A stretch of 64,000 bases of DNA from a virus (IMGVR_UViG_3300036768_000279:64001-128000); one strand, 5' to 3'; positions 10,800-44,628 are shown, counted from the stretch's first letter. The notes: a model not told the origin generated them from the sequence alone. Made by a program: numbers and translations.

Positions 10800-11448
10800 T
10801 GTTCCCGACGATGCCGTAGCTCAGGTTCTCGAACAGTATCATCCGTTCGTGCGGCACATTGCAAAACGTGCCTGTCATTCCTCTTCTGCCCTAGACATCA
10901 ATGACCTGTATCAGGTTGGTGACATGGCAGTATTAAGAGCCGTTCGTGCTTATGATCCGTCTTCTGGCCGCAACATCAAGTCGTTTGTTACGAATTCAAT
11001 TCGTAATGCTATCTTCAATGAAGCCGCTCGTTTTCTCGGCGTTCTGACTGTCGATTTCAGAACTACAAATTTGGCATCTATGGCGTCTAAGATGCACGAA
11101 AAGGGAAAGAGCGATGAAGAAATCGCTACGGCTCTGACAGAGAAGTATGGACGCAATTTCGACGCTGCACATGCCCGTGATCTACGCATCACGTACAATC
11201 GCAGACATTACTCTCAAGTCCAAGAAGACCTTGCTATGGAAGGCATTGAAAATGACTTGTCCATCAAAGATCTCCTAGATAGCGTCGTCAAAGACGAAGC
11301 GGATCGTATTATCCTTGACAGACGCATTTTTGGCGGCTGCTCTATTGAGCAGATTGTTGCCATTCTTCACATTTCAAGAAAGGCTGTTTCCAAGAAGGAA
11401 GCATGTCTTAAGACAAGAATCAAGCGAGCCCTTGAGGACGCGGCATGA
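10789..11448 (+). CDS. sigma70-family RNA polymerase sigma factor
   Basis: region 2 DINDLYQVG.MAVLRAVRAYDPSSG...F; region 4 HTH SIEQIVAILHISRKAV. Confidence 0.85.
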   Translation: MMVDVPDDAVAQVLEQYHPFVRHIAKRACHSSSALDINDLYQVGDMAVLRAVRAYDPSSGRNIKSFVTNSIRNAIFNEAARFLGVLTVDFRTTNLASMASKMHEKGKSDEEIATALTEKYGRNFDAAHARDLRITYNRRHYSQVQEDLAMEGIENDLSIKDLLDSVVKDEADRIILDRRIFGGCSIEQIVAILHISRKAVSKKEACLKTRIKRALEDAA

Positions 11449-13253
11449 CATACAAGAAGAGAATCCTATTTGTTGGCGAAGCCAGCTTTCTGAACACTGG
11501 TTTTTCAACATACTATCGTGAGCTATTGCCTCGTTTGGCTGCGACCGGCAAATACGAGATTGCTGAACTTGGCTCATACGCCCGTCAAGATGATCCTCGC
11601 GTGAAGGAATTCATTGCTGGTCGTTGGCGTTTTTACGGCGTTATGCCGATGACCGAGGAAGAGAATCGGGTGTTCCAGCAGCCTAATCCTCATCCGCGAA
11701 CTCGCGGTCAGAATACGAATCAATTCGGCGAGTATCGTTTTGCTCACGCTGTGGCCGATTTTAAGCCAGACATCGTGATCGACATTCGTGACTGGTGGAT
11801 GTTGGAATTCCAGGAACGCAACGTCTTTCGTCCATGGTACAAGTGGATTGTGATGCCTACAGTAGACGCCGAGCCCCAACAGGAAGAGTGGGTGCAGACG
11901 TACGAGAACGCCAATATGGTGTTGGCATATTCTGACTATGGCATTCATACTCTACGTCGTCAGTCGTCGCTGACCCCAACCGGCAAGCGTGCGATGAAGA
12001 TCTTCCCCAAGCCGATGCGTCCCGGCGTAGACATTAACTCTTTCAAGCCAGTGGACAAGAAGACGATCCGTGAGCACTGGAATTTGGCCGCTGACATTCC
12101 TATCATTGGAACTGTTATGCGTAACCAGAGTCGCAAGCTATATCCTGATTTGATTGACGCTTTTGCGTTGATGAAGAACAAGTACAAGGGAGAGCCGCAA
12201 GTAGACAAGGCCGTGCTCATGATTCACTCATGCTGGCCGGATAACGTCTATTCGTACGACTACCCACGCCACATTTTCCGTCTGGAACGTTACGACTGGA
12301 TGCCGAATCACAAGAAGGGTATCCGTGGAGACATTCTGCAATCACTGTACTGCTATGCTTGCAAGCAGGCGTCTATGACGTTTGCCGCCAATCTGTGGGG
12401 ACGCCCTATTCAGGAGGGTCGCATCAAGATGCCGTGCTCATATTGTGGAGCGACCGAAGCTTCGCCGCCGAACACAAGCATGGGCTTTGATCGTGATGCT
12501 TTGGCTAAGCTGTACAACCTCATGGATCTCTATGTGCAGTGCTCTATCTGCGAAGGCGACGGGATGCCGATTCAGGAAGCCAAGGCTTGCGGCGTGCCCA
12601 CACTCGTAGTCGATTACACGGCCATGCGAGAGAAGGGACGCTACCCCGATTATTCTCATTTCGAGGAGTCTGGTATCAATGAACGCAATTACACTTGCCA
12701 CAAGGGCGGTGATGTAATCAACGTTGGTCGTTACTACTATGAACCTGAAACGTCATGTAAGCGAGCATTGCCTGACATTGCGGACCTTGCACGCAAGATG
12801 CGTAACATGATCAACGACCCAGAGCGTTTGAAGCAACTTGGTCGAGAGGCACGAGAATGTGTTGAGGCTAACTACGACTGGGATAAGTTGTGGCATCAGT
12901 GGGAATACGTACTCGATAACGTCAAGATTCTTGATCGTAACGATACATGGGATCGTCCCATCGCTCAAATTGACGATGTTCACGCCGTGCCTGTTCCGGC
13001 TAACTTGAGCGACGAGCAATACGTTCATTGGTTGTATTTGAACGTTCTCAAGTATCCGTCCGTTGATACGGAAGGTGCCAAGATGTGGATTTCGCACCTA
13101 CAACAGGGCGTGACACGCGATCAGTTGATGCAGCAGTTTGTTGCTATTGGTAATCAACAATCTAGTGCTAGCAAGATTCGCGATCAGATTCGTCTAGAGG
13201 TCGGCGGCAAGTTGGCGTCTCAGCCCGCGAAGAAGACTCAGGAGTTCGTATGA
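11445..13253 (+). CDS. GT4 (GT-B) glycosyltransferase with Zn-ribbon insert and C-terminal DUF4214-like domain
   Basis: NTGFSTY, RNQSRK, EGDGMPIQEAKACG; CYAC...CSYC insert; C-terminal LSDEQYVHWLY...EGAKMW. Confidence 0.85.
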   Translation: MTYKKRILFVGEASFLNTGFSTYYRELLPRLAATGKYEIAELGSYARQDDPRVKEFIAGRWRFYGVMPMTEEENRVFQQPNPHPRTRGQNTNQFGEYRFAHAVADFKPDIVIDIRDWWMLEFQERNVFRPWYKWIVMPTVDAEPQQEEWVQTYENANMVLAYSDYGIHTLRRQSSLTPTGKRAMKIFPKPMRPGVDINSFKPVDKKTIREHWNLAADIPIIGTVMRNQSRKLYPDLIDAFALMKNKYKGEPQVDKAVLMIHSCWPDNVYSYDYPRHIFRLERYDWMPNHKKGIRGDILQSLYCYACKQASMTFAANLWGRPIQEGRIKMPCSYCGATEASPPNTSMGFDRDALAKLYNLMDLYVQCSICEGDGMPIQEAKACGVPTLVVDYTAMREKGRYPDYSHFEESGINERNYTCHKGGDVINVGRYYYEPETSCKRALPDIADLARKMRNMINDPERLKQLGREARECVEANYDWDKLWHQWEYVLDNVKILDRNDTWDRPIAQIDDVHAVPVPANLSDEQYVHWLYLNVLKYPSVDTEGAKMWISHLQQGVTRDQLMQQFVAIGNQQSSASKIRDQIRLEVGGKLASQPAKKTQEFV

Positions 13254-14509
13254 AGCTATTGTTCACCGGCCCCCTTCTAGACTTCTCTGGATTCGCTCAT
13301 GCGTCACGCATTTTCTTGCGTACACTTGTGCAGGATTCGAATATGGAAGTTGTGGCTCGTGCCCTCAAGTATGATCAGCTAGATGCTGGACAGAGGTTCG
13401 TTCCAGAGTCTTGGCTTACTAAGGCTCTAGAGCGGGACTTGCAGGGCGTTGATATGGCCATTCAAATGACGACGTGTAATGTTGAGGCCGTGCCTATTCC
13501 AGGCATTCTGAATGGCCTATACACGTTTCTTGAGAGTAGCCACATGCAACTTTCTTGGGTTGCGAAGGCTAATGAATTCGACTTCCTCATGGTGCCCTCC
13601 AAAGCCAATGGCGAAGCTATGTTGAATTCTGGCGTAACGAAGCCAATCATCGTATGCGGTCTTCCTTGTGATGCGGACGTTTACGCAAAGGAATATGAGC
13701 CGTACGTTCTTGAGAACGCTGGAGATCGTACGATCTTCTACAACATCTGCCAACTGAGCAATAAGAAGGGCATTGATGCACTCTTGCGTGCTTATTATGC
13801 TGGCTTCTGGGATAGCCCAGATGAGGTTTTGCTAGTTCTGAAAACCTACATTCAGATGTCTAATCGTTCCAACGAATTGGAGCAAGTGAAACGATACATT
13901 CAGAACATCCGTGAGCGTTGTCGTATTCCTGTGTCGCGTTTCCCACCAGTGTTGCCTCTCGTTTTTACTATGAGCGATACAGAGATTAATGGTCTGCATA
14001 CTCGCGGAGACGCCTACGTCTGTTCTTCGCGTGCAGAGGGATGGGGCATTCCCGTCTTTGACGCACTTGGTTTTGGCAAAACTGTCATCACCAATTCCGC
14101 TGGCGGCATGGGCGATTTCGTGACACGCGATAATGCCCTGGTGTATGGCGGTATGCCAACTTACTTCTTTGACATGCCACACGGAGATCCTGGTTTGTAC
14201 ACGGGTGTCGAACAGTGTTTCGAGCCGTGTATTCCAGAAATGGCTATGGTCATGCGTAACTTCCACTTGCTCCGTAAGGGCAACAAGGAAGGCGTACTGG
14301 ACGCTGGCAATAAAGAACAGTGGGAGGCGGTCCTGACGCGACGCAACAACGCCAAGCTCGTTGGACAGAAGTACGACTATCGTCGTATCTCTCCAATTAT
14401 CACAACTCAACTACATTCTCTTCTCAAGATCTGGAAACAGACAGGAACGATCGTATTCAATGAAGCCGTCCAAGAAAGTAGCGAAGCTCAATCTTCGTCC
14501 GTGTCTTGA
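13250..14509 (+). CDS. GT4 glycosyltransferase
   Basis: SGFAHASR, KKGIDALLRAY, SRAEGWGIPVFDALGFG. Confidence 0.85.
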   Translation: MKLLFTGPLLDFSGFAHASRIFLRTLVQDSNMEVVARALKYDQLDAGQRFVPESWLTKALERDLQGVDMAIQMTTCNVEAVPIPGILNGLYTFLESSHMQLSWVAKANEFDFLMVPSKANGEAMLNSGVTKPIIVCGLPCDADVYAKEYEPYVLENAGDRTIFYNICQLSNKKGIDALLRAYYAGFWDSPDEVLLVLKTYIQMSNRSNELEQVKRYIQNIRERCRIPVSRFPPVLPLVFTMSDTEINGLHTRGDAYVCSSRAEGWGIPVFDALGFGKTVITNSAGGMGDFVTRDNALVYGGMPTYFFDMPHGDPGLYTGVEQCFEPCIPEMAMVMRNFHLLRKGNKEGVLDAGNKEQWEAVLTRRNNAKLVGQKYDYRRISPIITTQLHSLLKIWKQTGTIVFNEAVQESSEAQSSSVS

Positions 14510-14816
14510 GAACGAAATGCGGATTGCACGTCCGCAACTCGGTCAAAAGGCAGATTACGGAGGGGGTCGCACAGCGGCCATCCATCTGTTCTGTTTGTCA
14601 TGTATGGGCGGCAACCGCTCAGACGTTGTAGCTTGTAAGTCTTATTCGTGTCCGCTATGGCAGTTTAGACCGGGCGGAAAGAAAGGTGTTCAGCCTCCTG
14701 GTATTCCAACCGCTGAACAATACAAAACATTGATCAATGCCAAGGTCAGCGACAAGCAGCGTGAAGCTGGACGTAGATTGCGTGAAGGCGATGACGGTGG
14801 TGGGGGCGTACAATGA
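14460..14816 (+). CDS. small Zn-binding phage protein
   Basis: AIHLFCLSCMGG...C...CPLWQFR; start placed at ATG 14460. Confidence 0.55.
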   Translation: MKPSKKVAKLNLRPCLENEMRIARPQLGQKADYGGGRTAAIHLFCLSCMGGNRSDVVACKSYSCPLWQFRPGGKKGVQPPGIPTAEQYKTLINAKVSDKQREAGRRLREGDDGGGGVQ

Positions 14817-15820
14817 ATCAGATGTACTATGAACCTCAAATGAAGTCGATTGCGGAGCGAGTGAATCGCAAGCCGCGTCTGGTGCAATGCATTCAGATGT
14901 TGAACGAAGAAGAATTTGCACCACTCGTCTTGCGTTCCATTTACGATCAGGTTGATAGGATTCTCGTGATTGAGGGAGCGGTGCAAAATAATCCGAGATC
15001 TACTCCAGACGGACATTCGATCGATAAGACACGTGAAGTCCTAGCGGACTTCAAGGCGAATCATGACCACAAGAAGAAGATTGTAGTTATTTCCATCAAC
15101 AAGCATTGGAAAAACTTGGAGGAAATGAAGCAGACGTTCTTGGACATGTCTATGCCGGGCGACTGGATATTGATCAATGATGCGGACGAAATTTATCGCC
15201 CGGAAGATATTGAACGTCTTCGCAGGGCTATTGAATTGAATCCTACGGCCTGTGAATTTGTGCCGAACTTCCTGCATTTCTATCGTGATTTCAGTCACGT
15301 TGCCGTGCCCGGACCTGAATGGCAGCCACAGCATCAACGTGTTTTCAAATATGTTCGTGGCATGAAGTACAATAGTCATCCAGTTGTGACAGATCCGGCT
15401 GGACACTGTACTTATTTCTCGCCGCACTATCAGCATCGTAGAGTCATGCTGAACGACTTCTTCATCTATCACTATGGCTACGCTCGTAGTAACATGGATG
15501 AAATCATGAAAGCTAAACAAGAATACTATGAGAAGGAATTGGCTACACACGGTGGAGCCAACAAGAAGTTCGACCAGAAGGTTAAGGATTGGTTTGCTGG
15601 CACAGAGCCGGTTCTGTATTTTGACGGTCAACATCCTGCGGTTATGGATAAGCAAAGCGTTAATGTTCAGGTTCCGCGAAAGCCACATGAGCGTACGTGG
15701 CGTGATGATCCCTTCTACAGCAAGGTACTTGCTGGTGAGGAATATGGCAATATTTGGTTGTGTATGACTCGTCAGTCTGTGCCACACATGCATCATTATC
15801 ACAACGGAATGAAGGTCTAA
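14813..15820 (+). CDS. GT2-like (GT-A) glycosyltransferase
   Basis: NEEEF, SIDKT, WILINDADE (DxD), IYHYGY. Confidence 0.8.
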   Translation: MNQMYYEPQMKSIAERVNRKPRLVQCIQMLNEEEFAPLVLRSIYDQVDRILVIEGAVQNNPRSTPDGHSIDKTREVLADFKANHDHKKKIVVISINKHWKNLEEMKQTFLDMSMPGDWILINDADEIYRPEDIERLRRAIELNPTACEFVPNFLHFYRDFSHVAVPGPEWQPQHQRVFKYVRGMKYNSHPVVTDPAGHCTYFSPHYQHRRVMLNDFFIYHYGYARSNMDEIMKAKQEYYEKELATHGGANKKFDQKVKDWFAGTEPVLYFDGQHPAVMDKQSVNVQVPRKPHERTWRDDPFYSKVLAGEEYGNIWLCMTRQSVPHMHHYHNGMKV

Positions 15821-15918
15821 TCATGCTATTACAATGCACGAAAACGACCCAGAGCATAGTCCGTTCAAGACGCTGACTTCAATTCTCTCGACTCCAAAAC
15901 ACGCAGACAGTATTTTGA

Positions 15919-16101
15919 GTGATGAAATACGTAGCAGATAAAGACTGGTCTGACGACTATGAAGAGCGAGAGGCTAGAGATAACGCCCGTATTCGTCGTC
16001 AGCAGAAGATCGACGCGAAGAAAATAATTCGTGACAAGAAGCGTTCTGGCACCTACTACGAACTACCTCAGTGGCAAAGAGAGAAGCTAGAAGATGACTA
16101 A
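15919..16101 (+). CDS. small charged hypothetical protein
   Basis: ORF overlaps the next gene. Confidence 0.45.
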   Translation: MMKYVADKDWSDDYEEREARDNARIRRQQKIDAKKIIRDKKRSGTYYELPQWQREKLEDD

Positions 16102-16933
16102 ATTGTCATATCTTGTATCGACGTATGACTCTGGTCATTATCTTGATCGGCACATTGCTGATTTGATCGATAGACAGACGGATCCCGATTTCGAGATTGT
16201 CATCATGAATCCAGACTCGCCTGGAACAGATGGCATCATTGCCCAAAAGTGGGTAGGAATTGATTCTCGTGTCAAGTATTTGTATTGGCCAAAACGAGAA
16301 TGGTATGGCACTTCATGGCTTCGTGCTTGGCAGTGTGCGACCGGCGATTTCGTTGTCAATAGCAATACAGATGACTACCATCATCCAGAGTTCACTGCTC
16401 AGTTTCACAAGTACATGAGCTTTGCGACCAGCGGTATGCACGCTGGCCGCAAGATTGGATTCGGTTATGCTGGCATCAGCGTGATTGATGACAATGGCAA
16501 GCCGCTTGGCGGTGGCATTAAGCCGCCATTCGACTTTGAACTAATGAGCCGCGAATGCTGGGCTGGTCCTCAGGTTTGTTGGAGAAACGACGAAAGCTTC
16601 AAGAAGTCTCTAGACTGGGATTTGATGTTCCAGCGTTCCAAGGAATACAGATCGGCGTTTGATTACTGGCTATGGCTATACTTTATGTCCTTGGGGTACC
16701 ATGGTTATGTGATACCACAGGTACTAACGGTTTATACTCAAAGACCTGGATCGATCGAGAACAGCAACAAGTTCGCCAACAATTACGAAACTTACTCTGC
16801 CATTTCCGAGTTCTTCGGTCATCATTTCAGGGGACAGTTGAAGCATGCTATCGAGTTTGAAGACTTCAAGAACCGTCCTCCGCGTGAGGCGTGGATTGCG
16901 ACTATGCAGGCAGGTAAGAAATGGCGAGCATGA
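16094..16933 (+). CDS. GT2 glycosyltransferase
   Basis: LSYLVSTY, QT...FEIVI, ATGDFVVNSNTDD, DYWLWL. Confidence 0.85.
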   Translation: MTKLSYLVSTYDSGHYLDRHIADLIDRQTDPDFEIVIMNPDSPGTDGIIAQKWVGIDSRVKYLYWPKREWYGTSWLRAWQCATGDFVVNSNTDDYHHPEFTAQFHKYMSFATSGMHAGRKIGFGYAGISVIDDNGKPLGGGIKPPFDFELMSRECWAGPQVCWRNDESFKKSLDWDLMFQRSKEYRSAFDYWLWLYFMSLGYHGYVIPQVLTVYTQRPGSIENSNKFANNYETYSAISEFFGHHFRGQLKHAIEFEDFKNRPPREAWIATMQAGKKWRA

Positions 16934-17214
16934 GTAAAAATCTGTGGTATCGTATTGTCGCTGGCAGTCTACTGAAAAAGCTTCAGGATGCGGATATTCG
17001 CATTCACACTTTACTGAACACTGTTCATGTTCACAAGGTTCGCATTACCGAACTTGAAGAAGCTGCCAAGAAGTCAAAGTCTGATGCTGATATTGCTGTT
17101 CGCGTCATTCGTGACTTAGAAGCTGAGGTTGCACGACTACGTGCCGACAAAGCTGCATTGTATCCAGAGCTTGATAGATTGCGTGCAAAGTTAGCTAAGT
17201 TCAACCAAAGATGA
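16921..17214 (+). CDS. coiled-coil hypothetical protein
   Basis: heptad pattern; coupled to both neighbours. Confidence 0.5.
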   Translation: MASMSKNLWYRIVAGSLLKKLQDADIRIHTLLNTVHVHKVRITELEEAAKKSKSDADIAVRVIRDLEAEVARLRADKAALYPELDRLRAKLAKFNQR

Positions 17215-18296
17215 TCAAGGTATTGCACTATCTCCGCCATCTTGGTTTAGGCGGTACCGAGAAGACGTGTCAATTGTTTTTTGAGCACGCCGACACTAGT
17301 CATTTTGATGTCGCTGTAGCATACGATGTAAACGGCTCTCATCCACGAAAAGAAGAATTTCAGAAAGCCGCTTTAGTTTGTGGTGGCAAATTGTTGGGAG
17401 TGGATACCAAAAACCACACCGATGGTCGCGACCTGCAAAGGGTGATCGATACGTTTAAGCCAGACATCTTACACGTATATCGCAGCGGCTATCACGAATT
17501 CCCTAGTCCTGGTCATGACATTAGTGTGCCGCATTTCATTGAGACCAATGTGTTTGGTTTCTATGATGGCAATAGACATATCGACAGGTCGCTTTTCATG
17601 AGCAAATGGCTTATGCACAATACGGTGCGTCAGCTAGGCGTCAAGCCTGATCGATTTGACTTCGTGAATAATCCTGTAGAGCGTCCATGTACTGGCGATC
17701 AGTTTGAAATTGCTGCACGCTGGAAATCGGAAGGAGCTATTGTTGTTGGACGTTGTGGGCGTCCCGACAATGGCATTTACAACGCCGTCAATGTAGATGC
17801 CGTGCGATTGCTGCGAATGCAAGGATATGATATTCGCTTCTTAGTTGTAGCCCCACCGTCCAATATGCTACACGATTTGTCACGTTACGACATTCCGTTC
17901 TACATGATAGAGCCGACAGTCAATCCGCTCGTTCTAAGCATGTTCTACAATAGCGTAGACATCTATACCCATGCCCGTGCAGACGGCGAAACGTTTGGCG
18001 TGAACATTGCAGAGGCTATGATTCACGGCAATCCTGTTATTACACATATTGCTACACCAAGCGTTCCGGGCATGGGAGTGTTCCAGTCACAAACAGAGCT
18101 AGTAGACAACAACGTTACGGGCTTGGTAGTCAACAATACACCTGGAGAATATGCAGAAGCATTGAAGACCTTGATTGACGATCAGAAGTTGCGTCAGTCT
18201 ATGGGCGAATTCGGCAGACGTAAGGCCGAAGCCGAATATGAGGTTAGTGTGTGTATGCATAAGCTCGAAAGTATCTATAGAGAGATTGCACAATGA
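17211..18296 (+). CDS. GT4 glycosyltransferase
   Basis: GLGGTEK, GETFGVNIAEAMIHGNPVI; paralog of 18293-19447. Confidence 0.88.
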   Translation: MIKVLHYLRHLGLGGTEKTCQLFFEHADTSHFDVAVAYDVNGSHPRKEEFQKAALVCGGKLLGVDTKNHTDGRDLQRVIDTFKPDILHVYRSGYHEFPSPGHDISVPHFIETNVFGFYDGNRHIDRSLFMSKWLMHNTVRQLGVKPDRFDFVNNPVERPCTGDQFEIAARWKSEGAIVVGRCGRPDNGIYNAVNVDAVRLLRMQGYDIRFLVVAPPSNMLHDLSRYDIPFYMIEPTVNPLVLSMFYNSVDIYTHARADGETFGVNIAEAMIHGNPVITHIATPSVPGMGVFQSQTELVDNNVTGLVVNNTPGEYAEALKTLIDDQKLRQSMGEFGRRKAEAEYEVSVCMHKLESIYREIAQ

Positions 18297-27154: not shown

Positions 27155-27155
27155 C

Positions 27156-33282: not shown

Positions 33283-33283
33283 T

Positions 33284-36490: not shown

Positions 36491-36496
36491 ATCAAC

Positions 36497-36784
36497 ATGA
36501 AGAACACACAGAAGTATGTATTGATTTTTGCCAAGGACGAAAACGGTAACGAGATTCCTTATCGTTTCATGCTATCCATCAACAAATCAATCAAGGCGGT
36601 TGAGAAGTCGCTGCTTGAGGCCCTCATGGGTACTGAGGGCGTGGATCGTATGGAAATTCATGGACGCTACACAGCCGAGGTTGTCATTGGTCGTGCCTTT
36701 GACGCCGAAGAAGTGTTGGCAGAATTGAGGACAAAGCTGGACTCTGTTCTCAGCGACATCATTACTCCGAAGCTTGTCCTATGA
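36497..36784 (+). CDS. hypothetical protein
   Basis: ATGA-coupled to thyX; start placed at 36497. Confidence 0.55.
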   Translation: MKNTQKYVLIFAKDENGNEIPYRFMLSINKSIKAVEKSLLEALMGTEGVDRMEIHGRYTAEVVIGRAFDAEEVLAELRTKLDSVLSDIITPKLVL

Positions 36785-37485
36785 TTGAAAAAGGCTACAC
36801 CATTCCTGTCCTTGGACAGGGTTACGTCCGCTATATCGACCATCTAGGCGACGATCTTCGTATTGTCGAGACGGCACGGATCAGCTATAAGTCGCCTAGT
36901 AAGGGCGAAGAAGCTGACAAGAAGCTCTTGATGTACCTGCACAAGAATCGGCACACGAGCCCCTTCGAATCATGCAGCATTACGTTCAATATCAAGATGC
37001 CCATTTTTTGTATGAGGCAGTTTGTGCGTCACCGCACATTCCGCTTGAACGAATGGAGTGGACGCTATAGCGAATTGGCGGACGAATTCTATATGCCGCA
37101 GAAGTGGCGTATTCAGGATACCAAAAACAAACAAGGTAGCTTGGAGCTAACTGGTGCTACCGAATCAGAAGACTTTTGGCATAGCCATAATACATCCATT
37201 GCTGAGAGTGTTTTTAAATCAGCTTATGCTGGTTATCAAGAGCTTTTGAGTCGTGGCGTAGCCAAAGAACTAGCACGTATCGTTCTACCAGTGTCGATGT
37301 TCACTGAGATTTACGTTTCGTGTGACGTTCACAATCTGATGCACTTCCTGAACCTTCGCCAGGATCCGCATGCACAGCTTGAAATCAGAGAGGTTGCAGA
37401 CGCTATGGCCTCTATTTTCAAGGAACTCTATCCGTGGTCGTACGAAGCCCATATAAAACACAAGCTTAAAATGATTGAAGCTTAG
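36781..37485 (+). CDS. thyX: flavin-dependent thymidylate synthase
   Basis: ARISY, HTSPFE, RQFVRHR...NEWSGRY, ARIVLP, HAQLEIR. Confidence 0.96.
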   Translation: MIEKGYTIPVLGQGYVRYIDHLGDDLRIVETARISYKSPSKGEEADKKLLMYLHKNRHTSPFESCSITFNIKMPIFCMRQFVRHRTFRLNEWSGRYSELADEFYMPQKWRIQDTKNKQGSLELTGATESEDFWHSHNTSIAESVFKSAYAGYQELLSRGVAKELARIVLPVSMFTEIYVSCDVHNLMHFLNLRQDPHAQLEIREVADAMASIFKELYPWSYEAHIKHKLKMIEA

Positions 37486-37492
37486 TGTACTT
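37482..37492 (+). promoter_or_regulatory. candidate late promoter motif TTAGTGTA
   Basis: same motif at 37980, 39696, 40910 (TTAGTGTG) and 51748-51755(-), each 28-56 nt before a start codon. Confidence 0.5.
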
Positions 37493-37511
37493 GAATGCCA
37501 GTAGGTACCAC

Positions 37512-37934
37512 ATGGTACAAGCACAGCAGGATTTCGCACAACCAATTGGCCCCACGCCCGAAAAGGTTCTTTTCGATGCGTTGCCAATCAATGAAGATCC
37601 AGATAACTACGTTCTGACGCACGCGGCAATTGCTGTTGCGAACTCAGGATTGTATGAGTGTACATATACCGTGAATGCAGGTCTTGGATCTGGCATCGGT
37701 GGCAACCTCACTGCTTATGTTGTTCTGAACGATGGCAGTGGTGCAGAGAGCATGATCCGCGAGAGCGTGTCTTTTGAGGACGTGTCTTCATCTTCGCCCA
37801 AGGCAACTTTGAATAACACATTCCAGATTGCTCTGCCTGCTGGTTGTGCTCTCAAAGTGTTTGCTGGATTCGTAGGAACTGGTGACGTGAATACGCTGCC
37901 ATTCTGTTCGATACTGGCTCTGAAACAATTCTGA
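37512..37934 (+). CDS. putative virion protein with BclA/C1q-like beta domain
   Basis: SGLYECTYTV motif; first gene of the structural block; start placed at ATG 37512. Confidence 0.5.
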   Translation: MVQAQQDFAQPIGPTPEKVLFDALPINEDPDNYVLTHAAIAVANSGLYECTYTVNAGLGSGIGGNLTAYVVLNDGSGAESMIRESVSFEDVSSSSPKATLNNTFQIALPAGCALKVFAGFVGTGDVNTLPFCSILALKQF

Positions 37935-37955
37935 TTAGAGTCTAACGATCTTTTT

Positions 37956-37990
37956 CTAAGGGGCTGCTACGGCGGCCCCTTAGTGTATTT
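37956..37990 (+). terminator. intrinsic terminator hairpin overlapping the next TTAGTGTA motif
   Basis: CTAAGGGGCTGC-TACG-GCGGCCCCTTAG followed by TGTATTT. Confidence 0.7.
37980..37990 (+). promoter_or_regulatory. candidate late promoter motif TTAGTGTATTT
   Basis: recurrent intergenic motif upstream of 38036. Confidence 0.5.
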
Positions 37991-38035
37991 GTATGAGGTC
38001 AGGTATCGTTTGGTACCCTTTCAAGGGAGTCTAGT

Positions 38036-38473
38036 ATGACTTCAATCGTAGCAGCAATTGTCGGTAGCGGCACGCTACCTTATACACGCGGCATTCTGCC
38101 TGCGTCTCAGCGTGGCAATCAATCAAATGGTGAGGGCGTGCGTACTGGCACGCAGGTGATTCTTGCCAATCCCGAGGATTTGAACTCGGTTGATGCTTTT
38201 GCCGCTTCTGGCATTACGGTAGGCACGTCGGCAGTTGAAGTTTTGGCGTTCAATAACAACCCACTTCCAAGATGTGGCAATGTTATTGTCAAAAATGGTG
38301 GATCGTCAGTCGTTCTGTTGAGTCATAAGCAAAACTTCACAGACACCGAAGGATTTCCGTTGGCAGCTAACGGTACTACTGGCGACACGGTTAGTATTCC
38401 TGTGCTCAAGAACGTTTCTATTTGGGCTCGTTGTGCGTCTGGATCAACTAACATAAAGTTGCTGATCTACTGA
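38036..38473 (+). CDS. small beta-rich putative virion protein
   Basis: paralog of 38504-38941 (GSGT.P start, NPE, I(T/S)VG, PL, N.G). Confidence 0.6.
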   Translation: MTSIVAAIVGSGTLPYTRGILPASQRGNQSNGEGVRTGTQVILANPEDLNSVDAFAASGITVGTSAVEVLAFNNNPLPRCGNVIVKNGGSSVVLLSHKQNFTDTEGFPLAANGTTGDTVSIPVLKNVSIWARCASGSTNIKLLIY

Positions 38474-38503
38474 GGCATTTCCCTTTAATGGAGGGAACCC
38501 CCA

Positions 38504-38941
38504 ATGCCCAGAGAATACAACGCAGTCATAGGGAGCGGCACAACTCCCCACGTAGCACACGCTCCGCCTTACGGTATTACGCCCGGCACATATCCTGTGC
38601 CCGATCAGCGTACCAATCTTCGTCATCGACAGGGCGACGGCATTATCGTTCTCAATCCAGAGAACGCTTCTGTTTCTATTGGTTTAAGCCAACAGGCTAT
38701 TTCTGTTGGCGGATCGCCAACAGCAATTCCAAGCTCGCCGCTCGAAAATCGAAGAGCATTGGTGATCTACAACGCCGGTCCCGGCACACTCTATGTCGGT
38801 ACGTCCAACGTGACGACATCCAATGGTATGCCTATGGCGGTTGGCGAAAAGATCGCCTTCGATATCCAAGGTACTCCGAACGTCAAAGTGTACGGCGTCT
38901 CTGACTCAACGTCCGACGTTCGTATCTTAGAGTTGGCATGA
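38504..38941 (+). CDS. small beta-rich putative virion protein
   Basis: PLENRRALVIYNAGPGTLYVG...G.P; paralog of the preceding gene. Confidence 0.6.
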   Translation: MPREYNAVIGSGTTPHVAHAPPYGITPGTYPVPDQRTNLRHRQGDGIIVLNPENASVSIGLSQQAISVGGSPTAIPSSPLENRRALVIYNAGPGTLYVGTSNVTTSNGMPMAVGEKIAFDIQGTPNVKVYGVSDSTSDVRILELA

Positions 38942-39699
38942 GTATTGGCGTTGGTGGAATCGTATCGCTTGGTGGAGGGTCTGGCGGAAGCAGCGGATCT
39001 ACTTCCGGCATTCAGTCTATCAACGGCCAGACAGGACCCACAGTCGCCATCACTGGCGTCAATGGAGTTGTTGTTACGGCGGGTGGCAACCTCATCACGA
39101 TTGATGGTGCGGGAGCGTCTGGCACCGTTGGTCCGGCGTCTTCTCAGTCTGGTGTCATTGGAGTCAATGGTATCACCGTTGAACAAATTGGCGGCAACTT
39201 TGTCGTCAATGGTGCCGCTCTGTCTGGCCTTATCGGCACGATTACGGACGTTTCAATTAGTGCAGTTGCTTCGTACACTGCATCATTCACCCATTTAGTT
39301 AGTGGAATATTTAACCACAACTTTAACACCAGAGAAACAATAGTTCAACTCTACGATAACTCGTCACCGCCACGAGTCATCGTGCCAGATGAGATCATCT
39401 CGGAAAACCTCAATCAGGTTGGGGTGATCTTTAACACGCCACAGACTGGTCGCGTAGTTATTCATGCTCCATCTGGTGTACCTACTGGCGGCGTTAAGAA
39501 GTACGCTGAGTCATTCACTAACTTGAGAAGCGTAGTCATTACACACGGATTGAACACGGACGATGTGATCGTACAGGTGAAGGACACGAGCGTTCCTCCT
39601 AAGCTTATCATACCAGACGACATCGAAATCACCAGTGCCAACGCTGTGTCAATAGTCTTTAATTCCATTACAAGCGGAAGAGTCTTGGTCATTGGTTAG
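38938..39699 (+). CDS. putative tail-fibre/virion protein with two tandem C-terminal modules
   Basis: SINGQTG fibre motif; 2x SFT...H..NT....VQ..D.S.P...I.PD.I.....N.V...FN...GRV. Confidence 0.65.
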   Translation: MSIGVGGIVSLGGGSGGSSGSTSGIQSINGQTGPTVAITGVNGVVVTAGGNLITIDGAGASGTVGPASSQSGVIGVNGITVEQIGGNFVVNGAALSGLIGTITDVSISAVASYTASFTHLVSGIFNHNFNTRETIVQLYDNSSPPRVIVPDEIISENLNQVGVIFNTPQTGRVVIHAPSGVPTGGVKKYAESFTNLRSVVITHGLNTDDVIVQVKDTSVPPKLIIPDDIEITSANAVSIVFNSITSGRVLVIG

Positions 39700-39725
39700 T
39701 GTATTATCTTTGCAAGGAGCTTGCA
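39696..39725 (+). promoter_or_regulatory. TTAGTGTA motif followed by SD-occluding hairpin TGCAAG-GAG-CTTGCA
   Basis: motif at 39696-39703; perfect 6-bp stem enclosing AAGGAG. Confidence 0.55.
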
Positions 39726-39730
39726 CGTAA

Positions 39731-40909
39731 ATGGGAACAATTATAGGCGATTTCACACCGGCTGTCAGCGGAGGGTCACACCTTGGCGTGAGTAGAACCA
39801 ATCTGAACAAGATTGATAACTTCTCTACTGTCGTGCCCTTCGGTAATATCCATCAGTTGAGTGGAGTGTTCCATAACTTGTATGGTCAGTCTGGTGTCAT
39901 CAGACTTGGAACGAGTGGTTTTGAATTCTCAACCGATGGCGGCAAGACTTTTGTGGGCACCGCTACCGTAGGCGGCAATAACGGCGACGTACTCTTCAAT
40001 GATGGCGGATCTATTGGCGGCGATTCCTTAGGATTGACATTCAATCAGTCCATCGACGCACTAGGTGTCAGTGGCGAGCTACAACTAGGTCGCAAGACTC
40101 TTGACCGCACCGCTATTGGTCCCAGAGCTGGATCTGGCGTCTCTCGATTTGTTGCAATGAATTTGGCTGAACGCCCTATATTCGGTGGAAGTAACTCTGG
40201 CATGAACCTGCCATACTTTTTCCAGCCAGCCCTGTTCAATAAGTTCATCTTCATGGCATTGCCGTCAGTGACGACAACCATTCAAACGTATGGCAACACA
40301 TTGACAAGCGTAGGTACTGTTTCGCACCCGACCCCTAACGTTGAGTCGGGCGTTATGGTTAACATTGCGTCCGCCGCTACCGCCGCCGCTACCTGTGGTA
40401 CTGGATCAAACAGCACTCTGTTCTGCCGTGGTGCGACATCTGGCGTGAACACTGGCTTCTTCTACGCAACTCGTATTACACAGCCAGACGCTAACTTTGA
40501 TGCTGGTAGAATTTTCTGTGGATTGGTCGCTGGCAGCATGGCTTCTTCTGTTAGTGCTGACGATCCTGGCGTAGACTCTTGTGGTTTCTCGTTCTCCACG
40601 ACACAAAACGTAGCTAAGAACTGGCTGTTCTCCACCAAGGATGGAACAACAAGAAGCACGCAAGACACCGGAATCTCGTGTTCTGGCAATAGAATCTGGG
40701 ATATGTATATCTATTCGCCGCCGTTCCCAAACAACAACGTGTTGTACTGGACGCTGCATGACGTTTCATGGAATCGCATTGCTAATGGCTATGCGATCAA
40801 CAATCTTCCTCGCGTTAATGTCTTGCTTCGTGCCGGTATTCAACTGAACAACATCACCGCAAGTGTTCGTAACCTCAGATTTACGCACATCTATTGCGAG
40901 TCCCTATGA
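39731..40909 (+). CDS. putative tail-fibre/receptor-binding protein
   Basis: N-terminal module GD..P..SG..HLG...PFGNIH..SGV...GQSGVIR...STDGG.TF shared with 40938 and 42397. Confidence 0.65.
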   Translation: MGTIIGDFTPAVSGGSHLGVSRTNLNKIDNFSTVVPFGNIHQLSGVFHNLYGQSGVIRLGTSGFEFSTDGGKTFVGTATVGGNNGDVLFNDGGSIGGDSLGLTFNQSIDALGVSGELQLGRKTLDRTAIGPRAGSGVSRFVAMNLAERPIFGGSNSGMNLPYFFQPALFNKFIFMALPSVTTTIQTYGNTLTSVGTVSHPTPNVESGVMVNIASAATAAATCGTGSNSTLFCRGATSGVNTGFFYATRITQPDANFDAGRIFCGLVAGSMASSVSADDPGVDSCGFSFSTTQNVAKNWLFSTKDGTTRSTQDTGISCSGNRIWDMYIYSPPFPNNNVLYWTLHDVSWNRIANGYAINNLPRVNVLLRAGIQLNNITASVRNLRFTHIYCESL

Positions 40910-40920
40910 TTAGTGTGTTT
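40910..40920 (+). promoter_or_regulatory. candidate late promoter motif TTAGTGTGTTT
   Basis: variant of the recurrent motif, 28 nt before ATG 40938. Confidence 0.4.
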
Positions 40921-40937
40921 TTTGACGGGGGAATCTC

Positions 40938-41708
40938 ATGGTAAGACTTAACGGCGATCTCATTCCCGGTAGTAGTGGTCAAGCCCACTTGGGAATCAAT
41001 GGTGGCGTAGGCGGCTCATTTGATATAACCACGCTCACGCCGTTTGGTAATATCCATATGAACTCTGGCGTTTGGCATGACCCGATGTCGGGCCAGTCGG
41101 GCGTCCTTAGATATAGCCAAGCCGCTGGTGCGTTCCAAATTTCGATTGACGGGGGTAGAACGTTCACTGCACTCGTGACGAATGCTGGTACGGTCACGTC
41201 GGTTGGTCAGCTAGGTGGAGCGGACCTTACTGGTGCGGTTGACATTGCCAGCAAGGGCAGTGGATTCATTTCTGTTACGGACACGGCTGGCGTCAGTCCA
41301 ATTCTTATTGGCGTTGACAGTCTTGGTCTTTCTGGGTTGTGGCGTTTCCCAACTCAGGGCTTCAATGGCTCTATCGTCAACTCATTGACCGACTTCAACG
41401 GCACAACCGCCCAAGGTGCAATCAATGTTGTTGGTGCATCTGGTGTTTATGTAGACATTATTGGTCAGACAATGACCATCACTGGTGCCGCTACACCTAT
41501 TAAGAGCTTTGCAGCTTCATTCGGTGCTGCTACTTCATGGACCGTCTCTCACAACCTCAACACAACGGACGTTCAGGTGGACGTATATGATGCAAGCACT
41601 CCTCGTCTTGCTATCATTCCTGATGCTATCGCACTCACTGACGCGAACACAGTAACGATCACATTCAATGTGGCACAGGCTGGAAGAGTAGTAATCACGG
41701 GCTTCTAA
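40938..41708 (+). CDS. putative tail-fibre/adaptor protein
   Basis: N-terminal module shared with 39731/42397; C-terminal module shared with 38938. Confidence 0.65.
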   Translation: MVRLNGDLIPGSSGQAHLGINGGVGGSFDITTLTPFGNIHMNSGVWHDPMSGQSGVLRYSQAAGAFQISIDGGRTFTALVTNAGTVTSVGQLGGADLTGAVDIASKGSGFISVTDTAGVSPILIGVDSLGLSGLWRFPTQGFNGSIVNSLTDFNGTTAQGAINVVGASGVYVDIIGQTMTITGAATPIKSFAASFGAATSWTVSHNLNTTDVQVDVYDASTPRLAIIPDAIALTDANTVTITFNVAQAGRVVITGF

Positions 41709-41709
41709 T

Positions 41710-42396
41710 ATGGTGAGTTTGTATGACATTTTGCGTGGAGACGTAATACCGCTTAGCGGAATTAATGTCTCTATTGGCAGAAACACATATGACGGGGCGG
41801 CACCAGCCGTTCCTATCAATGACTTGCATTTGCGTAGCTTGAATTTGTACGATGCCAGCACATCTGGCACTCTAACATACAATAACACAGACAAACGCAT
41901 TGATTTAATTAGAACGCCAAAAGAAACGTACCCTATTGTAACGGCAGTTTTCTTTCAAGTTGTTGATACTGTTGGTGGACAGACCATTACAACAGATACG
42001 CCAATAATATTCGACGCAACGCCAACTTACAATACGCATCCAAACATTTTTGTTTGGAATGGCTCCGATCAACTTAGCCTTGGTGCTGGTGGCGTATATC
42101 TTGTTAGCTGGTCAGTTACTCTAAGTCCTAACTCAACAGCAAAAGCATCGTCTTTTTCTGTTCGACTGATGATTGATAATGGTAGTGGTTATACGGAAGA
42201 GCCCGGAACAATTTGTTATGCAAATGAATCATTTGACTACAAAGTTGAAGCTACTCCAGTCACTATTTCTAAATCTTTCTTGATTACTTGTCCACCATCC
42301 CTGAGTAGCATCACATTGTATGCTACAGACAACACTACTGGACGGTCTGTTCAAAAAATCAACGGGTCTTCATTAACCGTTCAAAAGGTGTACTAA
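41710..42396 (+). CDS. putative fibre protein with BclA/C1q-like C-terminal domain
   Basis: divergent GDVIPLSG N-module, GVYLVSWSV; more AT-rich than its neighbours. Confidence 0.6.
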   Translation: MVSLYDILRGDVIPLSGINVSIGRNTYDGAAPAVPINDLHLRSLNLYDASTSGTLTYNNTDKRIDLIRTPKETYPIVTAVFFQVVDTVGGQTITTDTPIIFDATPTYNTHPNIFVWNGSDQLSLGAGGVYLVSWSVTLSPNSTAKASSFSVRLMIDNGSGYTEEPGTICYANESFDYKVEATPVTISKSFLITCPPSLSSITLYATDNTTGRSVQKINGSSLTVQKVY

Positions 42397-44628
42397 ATGG
42401 CACGCGAAGTAGGCGATCTATGGCCGCAGGCTAGCGGCTCTGCTGCTCTAGGGGCAGAAATGACGAATGGTGGATTCACCGGGGCTGTGCGTCCGTTCGC
42501 TGGTGTGTTCATGAACAGTGGTGTTTGGTATAATCCAAGCACTGGTACTTCTGGTGTTATTCGTTTTCAATTGAGCCAAGAACAAAATCTCTCTCTTGGA
42601 GAAGAGGTTTTTGGATTCTCAACAGACGGCGGAAGAACGTTCCCTCTTCAGCTTGGTGATAATGCTGTTGGACAAGGTGCCGACATCGTAGCTCCGTTTG
42701 GAGCAATGAGAATCATTGGTAGTGGCGGGATGGGAACGTTCTCGTTTGGTCCTGATGCTAGTAATCAAATGCTTGCAAATGATGGACCTTTAGTCCTTCA
42801 GGCATTTGGCGATGGCCTCGGAGGACGTGGTGGCGTCTTTGTTAACGCAAGACAGAATACCAATCTTTCACCATTCAATGGCAGTGGTCAACTAGAATTC
42901 CGCTTTGGTCCGCACCAAGCTTGGTACGCCAAACTATCACACTCAAATACTGGTGGTCCAGACAACGATGGCTTCTGGCCAATTCCTCACTCTGGTCAAG
43001 TAGCTGCCATGATTGCTGGTGGTACTACCAGCACGACTCTCCAGGCCGCTTATAATGGCGGTGACGAGGTATTGCTAAAGAACGCCGGTACACGATCTGA
43101 CGGCGTTGTTTTGAAGCAACCAGAAATCACACGTCCTCTATTTCCAACCGACCCTATTGGAGATCAAGGATATGGTTTGGCAGTGAGTGGCTACACAAGC
43201 ACACCACTCAATCCACATAGCTATGGTATTGCGTATCTAAACCACAACGCATTGGCATTTCAAGGCTCTGGTACCTTTGGAACCAATGGTCATTTGTGGC
43301 TAGGTATTGATCCTGCCAATTCGAATGCTGGCACTATTGCAAGTAGCGGCTCGCTTAGCATTGCTAGTCACGGTCTCTCTGTTAATTCTGATGGCAACGT
43401 ATTGCACTACGTATCGAACGGCAGCTTCAAGATTTTTGTACAAAACTCATTGTTGCAATTGCAGTCGATGACATCTGACGCCATCTTGTCTGCTGGTACT
43501 GCTCTTTCGTTGAATGCTGGCACAAATGCAACGCTTTCTGCCGCCGACGATGGCATTAGTATTATAGCATCAGACAATAACTTTGGTAGCAATGCTAACA
43601 TTGCCTTGACGGCAGACACCGATATTAGTGCGTCGGCGTTTGGCGGTAGTGGACTCTTGGCATATCGTTTTGGTCCGCATCAATCTTGGTACATCAAGAC
43701 TTCGCACAGCAACACTGGTGGTCCATTCAACAATGGATACTGGCCTATTGCTCACTCTGGTAATGTCGCCGAGATGATCGCTCGGTCTGCCGGAGGATCT
43801 ACATCACTCCAGCAAGCATATGTAGCTGGTCGCTCTATCATTACTCGTAGTGTTGAGGGTGGACCAGTTAGAGTGTCTGGTCTAACCGCTGCCGCACTTC
43901 GTCTTGAAACTAACGAAGGTGGTTTCGCTCACCTTGAGTTGTCTGGTGTATTGAAGACGCCGACTGGATTCACTGAGCAGGGCAGCATCATTTTGATGCG
44001 TCACGGCTTGAATCTTGACAGCACTCATATCGCCAACATTAATCACCAAGATGACATTTCGTCTATTTCTGCCGGTATTCCTACGCTCTGGCTTCACTGT
44101 GGCGGATCAGGCATTGTTCCATTCAGAACGGCCTCTGGTGTTGCACAGTTCTTCAACGTTTCGGCTTCGACTGCCATCAATGAAATCGGCCTAGCACTGA
44201 ATTTGACAGAAACCTCGCAGTCGCATACTGATAGATTTTTCAGATCAATCACAGGTAGCGGAGTTCAGGTTTTGGTTCCTGGACTATACAGCATTAAGTA
44301 TGCTGCCTCTATAGAGAAGACCGCTGGGGAGCTTGAGCAAAATGTCAAGGCTGAGGTAAGACTGTACGATCAGTGGGGTCAAACTTGGCGAATATTGGGC
44401 GGAGTTTCTTACGTTACTGTGCGAGACTTGTCTGCTCCATTTGGAACGGCCAATGGTCAATGTGTATTTGACATCAATGCTGGCGAGGTTATCAATCTTT
44501 TCGCCTCAACAACCTCTGTTCCTGTTGCACCAAACTCTGTGCGTTTCCCACAACGCTCGGCAAACTTGGTTGTAGAATATCTTGGTCCTCAGAGATCAAT
44601 CACTGGCCTCAGACAGAAGGTGTCCTAA
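42397..44628 (+). CDS. long Gly/Ser-rich tail-fibre-like protein
   Basis: shared N-module, internal ~60-aa repeat, C-terminal PGLYSIKY beta domain. Confidence 0.7.
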   Translation: MAREVGDLWPQASGSAALGAEMTNGGFTGAVRPFAGVFMNSGVWYNPSTGTSGVIRFQLSQEQNLSLGEEVFGFSTDGGRTFPLQLGDNAVGQGADIVAPFGAMRIIGSGGMGTFSFGPDASNQMLANDGPLVLQAFGDGLGGRGGVFVNARQNTNLSPFNGSGQLEFRFGPHQAWYAKLSHSNTGGPDNDGFWPIPHSGQVAAMIAGGTTSTTLQAAYNGGDEVLLKNAGTRSDGVVLKQPEITRPLFPTDPIGDQGYGLAVSGYTSTPLNPHSYGIAYLNHNALAFQGSGTFGTNGHLWLGIDPANSNAGTIASSGSLSIASHGLSVNSDGNVLHYVSNGSFKIFVQNSLLQLQSMTSDAILSAGTALSLNAGTNATLSAADDGISIIASDNNFGSNANIALTADTDISASAFGGSGLLAYRFGPHQSWYIKTSHSNTGGPFNNGYWPIAHSGNVAEMIARSAGGSTSLQQAYVAGRSIITRSVEGGPVRVSGLTAAALRLETNEGGFAHLELSGVLKTPTGFTEQGSIILMRHGLNLDSTHIANINHQDDISSISAGIPTLWLHCGGSGIVPFRTASGVAQFFNVSASTAINEIGLALNLTETSQSHTDRFFRSITGSGVQVLVPGLYSIKYAASIEKTAGELEQNVKAEVRLYDQWGQTWRILGGVSYVTVRDLSAPFGTANGQCVFDINAGEVINLFASTTSVPVAPNSVRFPQRSANLVVEYLGPQRSITGLRQKVS
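42880..43830 (+). repeat. diverged ~180-bp internal direct repeat (~42880-43060 and ~43645-43830)
   Basis: GSG.L..RFGPHQ.WY.K.SHSNTGGP.N.G.WPI.HSG.VA.MIA....T.LQ.AY occurs twice. Confidence 0.85.

Follow-up and report, generated by a model that had tools for sequence, protein, structure and literature searches.

Virions of the mycobacteriophages Che8, Corndog, and Myrna are glycosylated by phage-encoded glycosyltransferases (GTs), according to the account of Freeman et al. 2023 given in PMC12363180 and PMC12582341. In these tailed phages, the phage's own virion proteins are decorated inside the cell. Chloroviruses produce GDP-fucose and use their own enzymes to glycosylate the capsid protein in the cytoplasm (PMC5408694, PMC7826918). 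Here, a candidate glycosylation system was analysed in a stretch of 64,000 nucleotides (the window), which corresponds to bases 64001–128000 of the record IMGVR_UViG_3300036768_000279. The record is a complete virus genome of 147,927 bp with direct terminal repeats, and the DNA originated from a microbial mat metagenome, for which the search of sequencing runs listed two DNA runs and none of RNA. Positions below are those of the window unless they are called genome positions. The system comprises a glycan island of about 19 kb (11445–30171), which makes up 13% of the genome, and a set of tail and fibre proteins with an excess of Ser-Gly (SG) dipeptides. The SG enrichment is real, directional, Ser-specific, conserved, and located at the protein level, and it is tail-specific rather than virion-wide. 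From the gene content and these sequence statistics, we propose that the island may carry out a soluble O-glycosylation of the tail and fibre proteins at the SG serines, a reading that is quite possible if short of probable.

The likeness to the mycobacteriophages is that of a tailed phage with its own GTs. Those phages use a few GTs, mainly on capsid and tail-tube subunits, whereas approximately 11–13 GTs, four methyltransferases, and a GDP-deoxyhexose pathway are found here. Moreover, the capsid of the present phage has no candidate site; the candidates lie instead in proteins of the tail, baseplate, and fibres, where we propose a short sequon-like motif. Chloroviruses of the PBCV-1 type share with this phage virus-encoded GMD and GMER/Fcl, several soluble GTs, methyltransferase activity, and the lack of lipid-carrier or endoplasmic reticulum machinery. 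The NY-2A protein B736L is also the best fold match of GT602, the first GT of the island, though generic GT4 enzymes match nearly as well. On the other hand, chloroviruses are eukaryotic viruses, and their glycans are N-linked at atypical sites of the major capsid protein, whereas the capsid is devoid of SG here and might bear glycans at other sites. TibC and AAH are soluble cytoplasmic enzymes acting on many serines of beta-rich extended surface proteins (PMC4358343), which is only proposed for GT602. Their GT-B-like core carries an inserted Cys4 finger, and the CxxC...CxxC ribbon of GT602 recalls the iron finger of TibC. However, GT602 is of the GT4 type by Pfam and by fold, not of the GT9/heptosyltransferase type, and TibC is not among its fold matches listed. 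By this classification GT602 is outside the TibC/AAH family, though it resembles that family in its possible mode of action. The GtfA/GtfB system, a two-component protein O-GT of serine-rich repeat adhesins, is an adjacent GT4-type pair with one catalytic and one accessory member. GT602 and its neighbour GT419 are a GT4-type pair conserved lineage-wide here; GtfA is not among the listed GT602 fold matches. The ORF113–135 island of S-SCSM1 (PMC9602691) also belongs to a large lytic phage with Gmd, Fcl, and a run of GTs. However, that phage is of an unrelated lineage, has no GT602-type enzyme, and shows no directional SG excess. The initiating transferase, flippase or exporter, and polymerase or ligase of Wzx/Wzy and ABC-type pathways are absent from the phage genes, and the host may supply them. 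T4-type glycosylation of DNA bases requires a ThyA-family hydroxymethylase, which this genome does not encode.

The SG content was evaluated against expected counts from within-protein shuffles. In the fibre-like block (37485–44628), SG occurs 52 times against 28.7 expected (1.8-fold, z 4.7), and SG followed by Val, Ile, or Leu (SG[VIL]) occurs 26 times against 6.6 (4-fold, z 8.1). The reverse dipeptide GS is found 35 times against 28.7 (z 1.3). TG and AG are not enriched, and GS[VIL], TG[VIL], and AG[VIL] are at expectation. The main structural block, which lies outside the window, has 68 SG[VIL] sites against 16.8 (4-fold, z 12.3). When all dipeptides of the tail and fibre proteins were compared, SG was the sole outlier (183 against 96.8, z 10.3), the next dipeptide reaching z 3.5; SG was not an outlier elsewhere in the genome, and no SG excess was found in the GT operon or the remaining proteome. 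The excess is located in sheath-like, tube-like, baseplate, and fibre proteins; TerL, the portal protein, and the tape measure lack it, and the major capsid protein has 0 SG. The hand counts of the first-pass annotation proved exact (16 SG and 12 GS in the 743-aa protein, 10 SG in the 392-aa protein, 9 in the 253-aa protein; 52 in the eight-protein block). That annotation had left the enrichment unproven in proteins rich in Ser and Gly, and the observed-to-expected (O/E) comparison of SG with GS settled this doubt in favour of a true excess. The SG[VIL] codons form 62 distinct 9-mers in 94 sites and use both Ser codon families, which places the signal at the protein level; an explanation by a DNA-level motif was rejected on the same ground. 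The flanking contexts of SG are diverse. A windowed search showed that the 743-aa and 253-aa proteins each contain a duplication and that a 1605-aa protein has a short repeat zone. Inflation by tandem repeats was rejected because repeats explain only about 6 of the 94 sites. An apparent avoidance of SG[VIL] in non-virion proteins was also dropped, as its O/E value is 0.5 in this genome but 0.8–1.3 in the relatives.

The phage has no cultured relative among 50,697 phage records, in which the best TerL match had at most 27% identity over 60% of the length. In the same records the sheath-like and fibre proteins, including the 743-aa protein, had zero matches, and the major capsid protein had at best a weak match to Bacillus phage G. 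Many relatives are present in IMG/VR. Four close relatives (G001, G003, G004, and G005; TerL identity 61–90%) and four deep relatives (TerL identity 32–40%) were compared; genes were called by a greedy longest-ORF (open reading frame) rule, and the structural blocks of the relatives were bounded by orthologue positions. In the orthologue alignments with the four close relatives, the serine was conserved at 88% of SG[VIL] sites and 79% of other SG sites, compared with 47% for other serines, 43% for the serine of GS, and 60% for all other residues. The glycine of the motif was conserved at 94%, above the serine, and Thr replaced the motif Ser in 5 of 32 substitutions. For the 256-aa fibre protein, 33 homologues (53–86% identity) were aligned; six of its seven SG serines were invariant, and the other serines had a mean conservation of 38% (Mann-Whitney p 0.008). 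The first-pass annotation had also noticed SG at fixed positions in diverged paralogous modules. This was confirmed by an alignment of the N-terminal module (N-module) of the 392-, 256-, and 743-aa proteins with their paralogues and orthologues, where PxxSG, SG(V/I)(W/F)H, and xSG(V/I/L)xR were invariant in 12 of 12 sequences.

The same excess was seen in the relatives. SG[VIL] was enriched 3.4–4.2-fold in the structural and fibre blocks of the four close relatives and 1.0–1.3-fold elsewhere in them. In the tail blocks of the four deep relatives, SG was enriched 1.4–2.1-fold (z 5–12) with GS at expectation, and their most SG-rich tail proteins have no BLAST match to this genome (for example, a 2216-aa protein with 66 SG and 20 GS). 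Five unrelated phages served as controls. The SG[VIL] O/E values were 1.13 for the T4 structural proteins (SG 0.98), 1.22 for Pseudomonas phage Y1, 1.39 for a gut phage contig, 1.46 for the T4-like cyanophage S-SCSM1 with Gmd, Fcl, and GTs (SG 1.20, GS 1.23), and 1.56 for the T4-like cyanophage DSL-LC03, which also has Gmd and Fcl. No confident GT602-type match was found in S-SCSM1 or DSL-LC03. From these values of 1.1–1.6, a fourfold directional excess is neither general to phage tails nor tied to a fucose island. If SG is a sequon, its link is to this lineage's own GTs, not to the fucose genes. A mild directional SG excess was observed in some giant structural proteins of the freshwater phage DSL-LC03 (OR003938.1, 48604–55329 and neighbours), one of which has 42 SG against 25.9 expected, 22 GS, and 17 SG[VIL]. 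A weaker or different form of the phenomenon may thus exist in a cultured phage.

The gene content of the island was assigned with Pfam and NCBIfam (Table 1). It bears out the roughly eleven GTs, four S-adenosylmethionine (SAM) methyltransferases, IMPDH/GMP-reductase-type enzyme, Fcl, and Gmd that had been read from the sequence before, the eleventh GT being a lead only. Ten GTs are supported by Pfam (four Glycos_transf_1, two Glyco_trans_1_2, and four GT2), and one further protein is GT-A-like. The latter, of 220 aa, reached 0.99 in ESM Atlas features to phage 'hexosyltransferase' clusters and a structural template-modelling (TM) score of 0.94 to a GT2-bearing cluster; its cellular structural neighbours in the ESM Atlas are proteins fused to tetratricopeptide repeats. 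Gmd matched TIGR01472 over its full length with 336 bits against a cut-off of 415. The best NCBIfam model of the Fcl-like enzyme was GDP-L-fucose synthase, also over the full length (266 bits against a cut-off of 500). Judged by these families, their product is probably GDP-L-fucose; both scores being below the equivalog cut-offs, a GDP-6-deoxyhexose other than fucose is possible. For the IMPDH/GMP-reductase-like enzyme, NCBIfam was undecided between the two activities, with all scores below cut-off, and a role in guanine-nucleotide supply may be suggested. The start of the third methyltransferase was revised with tblastn, whose matches begin at residue 35 in G004 and G005 and at residue 1 in G001. 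No protein with at least two hydrophobic segments was found in the island by a Kyte-Doolittle scan, and genome-wide there was one, a 76-aa ORF. This result argues that a phage-encoded flippase, polymerase, phosphoglycosyl transferase, and oligosaccharyltransferase are absent, in agreement with the earlier observation that membrane and lipid-carrier machinery is lacking. The earlier statement that there is no DNA hydroxymethylase also held for the complete genome, in which the ThyA family (PF00303) was not found and only a ThyX-type synthase is encoded.

The island had further been described as one coupled operon. Most of its neighbouring genes do overlap, by 1–50 nt. On the other hand, there are several gaps of about 80–350 nt, and a free-standing LAGLIDADG gene in the island had been overlooked. 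The preceding sigma factor is conserved at 45–84% in the four close relatives, and its stop codon shares the sequence ATGA with the start codon of the first GT. A scan of the island for sigma-70 promoters and terminators gave no more sites than shuffled sequences, and a k-mer search of 13 plus-strand intergenic gaps gave no common motif. One near-consensus sigma-70 promoter was observed at 27417–27445 (+), with TTGACA, a 17-nt spacer, CATAAT, and TG, upstream of the last methyltransferase, Fcl, and Gmd. The LAGLIDADG gene is missing from this position in G001, G004, and G005, and G003 has its copy elsewhere. A second free-standing LAGLIDADG-type gene was observed inside the tail module (genome 49856–50704, outside the window), and both genes are absent at these places in most relatives. 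Three more GTs are encoded outside the island, one at 53168–53839 (−) and two at genome 19614–20558 and 21386–22204; the latter two are located just upstream of the terminase gene and are kept in most close relatives.

For the understanding of the first enzyme, GT602 was aligned and modelled. The alignment showed four invariant cysteines (C303, C306, C331, and C334) and an intact E370-x7-E378 motif; the acidic EX7E/D motif is kept in GT419 as well. The AlphaFold2 (AF2) model of GT602, with a predicted local distance difference test (pLDDT) of 88, shows a GT-B fold in which the cysteines form a small beta-ribbon, with a helical DUF4214 domain at the C-terminus. In the Protein Data Bank (PDB), its best fold match was the chlorovirus NY-2A GT4 protein B736L (3oy2, E 1.4e-18, TM 0.79), followed by the generic GT4 enzymes GlgM, sucrose-phosphate synthase, MshA, PimB', BshA, and PglA. 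Sequence searches of GT602 and GT419 against PDB chains gave nothing informative, and no Pfam families other than the GT1-type and DUF4214 were found in the two proteins. The acceptor of GT602 is not readable from the modelled fold. GT602 is the hallmark of the lineage, and together with its constant neighbour GT419 it is a candidate priming enzyme.

The whole island is syntenic in the four close relatives, where the GTs are 60–85% identical and are conserved like the portal protein. In the deep relatives, most of the island differs, and the adjacent GT602 and GT419 pair and Gmd are kept in 4 of 4. Two of them, G011 and G013, also keep a GT323-like enzyme and a methyltransferase. Gmd is directly upstream of the terminase gene in G011, G013, and G015, where the structural genes begin, with the GT323-like gene beside it in G011 and G013. 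Adjacent GT602/GT419 orthologues were found in G001, G003, G004, G005, G009, G011, G013, and G015. In total, GT602 is present in all nine fully compared genomes and in three further fragments, and Gmd in 15 of 15 large relative records searched. Every relative large enough to judge carries Gmd, plus GT602 where inspected, and two fragments without GT602 are only 32–46% complete; a contrast between presence and absence of the GT locus is possible against unrelated phages only. More than 2300 homologues of GT602 were collected, the best 120 of which are 55–100% identical, many of them on contigs of up to 183 kb. A tblastn search of GT602 against the 50,697 phage records gave one weak cyanophage match only. 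In 185,579 species genomes, GT602-type enzymes appeared on two contigs only, of 104–158 kb. These are NZ_JAILWB010000012.1 (L176, 157,945 bp; 74% identity), assigned to a Hydrogenophaga metagenome-assembled genome (MAG), and SHMW01000005.1 (L177, 104,353 bp; 36% identity), assigned to a Promethearchaeota MAG. Both have the size of phage genomes of this lineage, are probably mis-binned phage contigs, and give no evidence for a host. From these comparisons, the island appears to be a core module in a large lineage that has no cultured member and consists only of phages, with genomes of 110–180 kb.

Insertions were also observed in glycosylation genes of the lineage. Several GT602 homologues of 946–981 aa (P0004, P0006, P0044, P0049, P0100, and P0106) carry LAGLIDADG or intein-splicing Pfam domains. 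Insert-bearing glycosylation-gene loci are present in relatives at G011 14098–16242, G011 84537–87437, and G015 135933–138638, and in G011 the Gmd ORF, which contains an insert of about 1 kb, is 714 aa long. It appears that inteins have entered glycosylation genes at more than one site, and such elements are said to favour conserved, important genes.

Table 1. Predicted genes of the glycan island and the fibre-like block (window positions).
Feature	Position	Strand	Basis
Sigma-70-family factor	10789–11448	+	Pfam Sigma70_r2 E 1.6e-12, r4_2 weak
GT602, GT4-type GT-B glycosyltransferase with DUF4214	11445–13253	+	Pfam
GT419, second GT4-type enzyme	13250–14509	+	Pfam
GT2-type glycosyltransferase	14813–15820	+	Pfam PF00535; 75–78% identity in four relatives
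GT2-type glycosyltransferase	16094–16933	+	Pfam PF00535 E 8.5e-14
GT4-type glycosyltransferase	17211–18296	+	Pfam PF00534, PF13692
GT4-type glycosyltransferase	18293–19447	+	Pfam PF00534, PF13692
220-aa protein, GT-A/hexosyltransferase-like, lead only	19444–20106	+	ESM Atlas; no Pfam match
CBS-less IMPDH/GMP-reductase-family enzyme	20454–21521	+	Pfam IMPDH E 1e-101
Glyco_trans_1_2-type glycosyltransferase	21655–22557	+	Pfam PF13524
Free-standing LAGLIDADG homing endonuclease, outside the pathway	22547–23185	+	Pfam PF14528
GT2-type glycosyltransferase	23263–23937	+	Pfam PF00535 E 4e-19
GT323, Glyco_trans_1_2-type glycosyltransferase	23934–24905	+	Pfam PF13524 E 3.7e-28
Two class I SAM methyltransferases	24857–25438, 25426–26070	+	Pfam Methyltransf_11, _25, _23
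GT2-type glycosyltransferase	26309–27154	+	Pfam PF00535
SAM methyltransferase, start revised to M35	27156–27746	+	Pfam Methyltransf_24
SAM methyltransferase	27730–28245	+	Pfam Methyltransf_11/23
Fcl-like GDP-4-keto-6-deoxymannose epimerase/reductase	28242–29159	+	Pfam Epimerase; NCBIfam
Gmd, GDP-mannose 4,6-dehydratase	29149–30171	+	Pfam PF16363 E 5e-106
Three small S/G-rich proteins (149, 145, 145 aa)	37485–38941	+	Sequence
253-aa fibre-like protein, 9 SG	38938–39699	+	Weak PHROG 'virion structural protein', 'head decoration'
392-aa fibre-like protein, 10 SG, common N-terminal module of about 85 aa	39731–40909	+	Sequence
256-aa fibre-like protein, 7 SG	40938–41708	+	Alignment, AF2
228-aa S/T/N-rich protein	41710–42396	+	Sequence
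743-aa fibre-like protein, 16 SG, 12 GS, common N-module	42397–44628	+	Sequence
124-aa protein with hydrophobic stretch	44582–44956	+	Sequence; weak PHROG Rz-like spanin match

The proteins encoded at 37.5–44.6 kb had been called the structural block of the phage. A fibre cassette is plausible from their sequences. However, the main head and tail module is located elsewhere, upstream of the window (genome 22.9–62.6 kb), with TerL, the portal protein, the major capsid protein, a 1774-aa tape measure, and giant baseplate and fibre proteins, so that the block in the window would be a second, separate cassette. The two proteins of 145 aa, which have a common N-terminal GSGT.P, are paralogous to each other and have orthologues in the four close relatives. 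A duplicated C-terminal beta-sandwich module of the 253-aa protein is also found in the 256-aa protein, and the 743-aa protein has one internal duplication (about residues 120–230 and 390–480). The AF2 monomer model of the 256-aa protein (pLDDT 65) is confident only in the C-terminal beta-sandwich; its PDB fold search gave no significant match, with weak rows for pyocin and phage fibre domains. The 124-aa protein may, on a weak indication, be of a lysis type and close the fibre block.

The phage brings its own DnaE-type polymerase, sigma factor, class II ribonucleotide reductase (RNR), and ThyX. Between the island and the fibre block, a nucleotide-metabolism run was observed at 32630–37485, composed of MazG, a glycine-oxidase/DAO-family flavoenzyme, the class II RNR, and ThyX. 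The best match of ThyX is about 30% identical in G001 and G003, and no match for RNR was obtained in G003 or G005. A homologue of the ClpP/S49-like 'head maturation protease' was observed at 5648–6226, among replication genes between an exonuclease and DnaE and outside the head module.

Taking the results together, the following pathway may be drawn. As sugar donor, Gmd and the Fcl-like enzyme would provide GDP-L-fucose or, less probably, another GDP-6-deoxyhexose. About eleven GT-A and GT-B transferases would add sugars stepwise in a soluble, membrane-independent manner, and the four SAM methyltransferases would O-methylate the added sugars. The acceptors would be the phage's own sheath-like, tube-like, baseplate, and fibre proteins, with attachment at the Ser of Ser-Gly-(Val/Ile/Leu) at beta-strand starts after priming by GT602 with GT419, and the outcome would be a methylated, deoxyhexose-containing coat on the tail. 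In this scheme, what the glycan is attached to and where, which sugar it contains, and in what order the steps run are our inferences. In this full form, where the tails, baseplates, and fibres of the lineage are coated with a methylated 6-deoxyhexose O-glycan at an SG[VIL] sequon through GT602 and GT419, the proposal is more tentative, and we would call it doubtful but not remote. Self-glycosylation at SG would be the most economical reading because the pathway is soluble, because it is conserved lineage-wide, and because the SG serines are exceptional in outward-facing tail proteins. Of the interpretation given by the first-pass annotation, the soluble glycan pathway and the SG enrichment have stood, and SG as the site of a fucosylated O-glycan on virion proteins stays a proposal.

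Several points weigh against self-glycosylation at SG. The glycan, its attachment, and its site are proposed here from sequence, and the proteins at 37.5–44.6 kb are presumed to reside in the virion. In its fold, GT602 resembles generic GT4 enzymes whose acceptors are small molecules or lipid-linked, and no known protein O-GT is among them. The capsid, which is the main target in the mycobacteriophage and chlorovirus precedents, is without SG. Since the whole lineage has both the GTs and the SG motif, their co-occurrence amounts to about one independent evolutionary event, and a lineage-specific structural turn or cap motif would yield identical statistics and conservation. Besides, the GT2 and GT4 enzymes of O-antigen and exopolysaccharide (EPS) synthesis are also without membrane helices, and the host could supply the export genes. 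Comparable islands of cyanophages have been published as host cell-wall modification genes (PMC9602691).

The last two points lead to an explanation in which the GTs and methyltransferases of the island alter a lipid-linked glycan of the host, such as the O-antigen of lipopolysaccharide, EPS, or an S-layer glycan. The initiating transferase and exporters of the host would complete the path, the phage would gain by excluding superinfecting phages or by avoiding adsorption to lysed cells, and the SG motif would be an unrelated structural feature. We regard this as unlikely, though to be taken seriously. Gmd occurs in 86 phage records, and the GT2 genes have weak NCBIfam matches to the polysaccharide transferases EpsE, TuaG, and HpsN. 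Wzx/Wzy and ABC-type pathways ordinarily include soluble GT2 and GT4 enzymes, and the DNA comes from a microbial mat, an environment where EPS is abundant. However, the phage itself has no initiating, flipping, polymerising, or ligating component, and it spends 13% of its genome on an island whose synteny reaches deep relatives. GT602-type enzymes on just two contigs of the species genomes, taken as mis-binned phage, also speak against a host pathway. The cell-wall reading of the cyanophage islands is itself only a proposal, and the strongest signal of the genome, the SG motif, would be left unexplained.

It is also conceivable that the island glycosylates virion proteins at sites other than SG. 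The SG motif would then have a structural role particular to this lineage, such as capping the passage from turn to strand in beta-rich trimers of the tail, or it would be recognised by another modification system or an assembly factor. This is rather improbable in our judgement. In the usable parts of the 256-aa model, SGV is located at beta-strand starts (S43, S54, and S168), and a glycine more conserved than the serine is what a conformational need would produce. Many O-GTs accept both Ser and Thr, and the rarity of Thr at the motif and the lack of TG enrichment fit a structural role. On the other hand, some protein GTs, among them xylosyltransferase and the autotransporter heptosyltransferases (PMC4358343), are known to prefer Ser strictly. 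T4 and the four other control phages have comparable beta-rich tail or fibre proteins without the excess. Moreover, the motif appears in many unrelated contexts and in different folds, and deep relatives keep the excess although BLAST does not match their largest SG-rich tail proteins to this genome. Yet another acceptor, namely the phage DNA or a free or secreted methylated oligosaccharide or glycolipid, is very unlikely. The nucleotide-metabolism genes just downstream of the island, with the glycine-oxidase-like flavoenzyme, and the small-molecule acceptors of the near folds of GT602 (MshA, BshA, sucrose-phosphate synthase, and GlgM) would agree with it; the absence of a ThyA-family hydroxymethylase and of a phage-encoded exporter does not. 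To our knowledge, about eleven GTs, four O-methyltransferases, and a GDP-deoxyhexose supply far exceed any known sugar modification of DNA.

If the proposed O-glycosylation of tails and fibres at SG is true, virion glycosylation would be a core and costly trait of a large environmental lineage, beyond a few mycobacteriophages. In the full form with GT602 and GT419 at an SG[VIL] sequon, no sequon-directed glycosylation of proteins by a bacterial virus would precede it, and the system would be a prokaryotic counterpart of the capsid glycosylation of chloroviruses. With a short acceptor motif readable from sequence and a named candidate priming enzyme, the system could be addressed without culturing the phage. 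It would also bear on the reading of GT islands of large phages that are now labelled as host cell-wall modification genes. Finally, a glycan coat on the tail fibres would matter for how hosts are recognised and for how well the phage withstands proteases and grazers in microbial mats.

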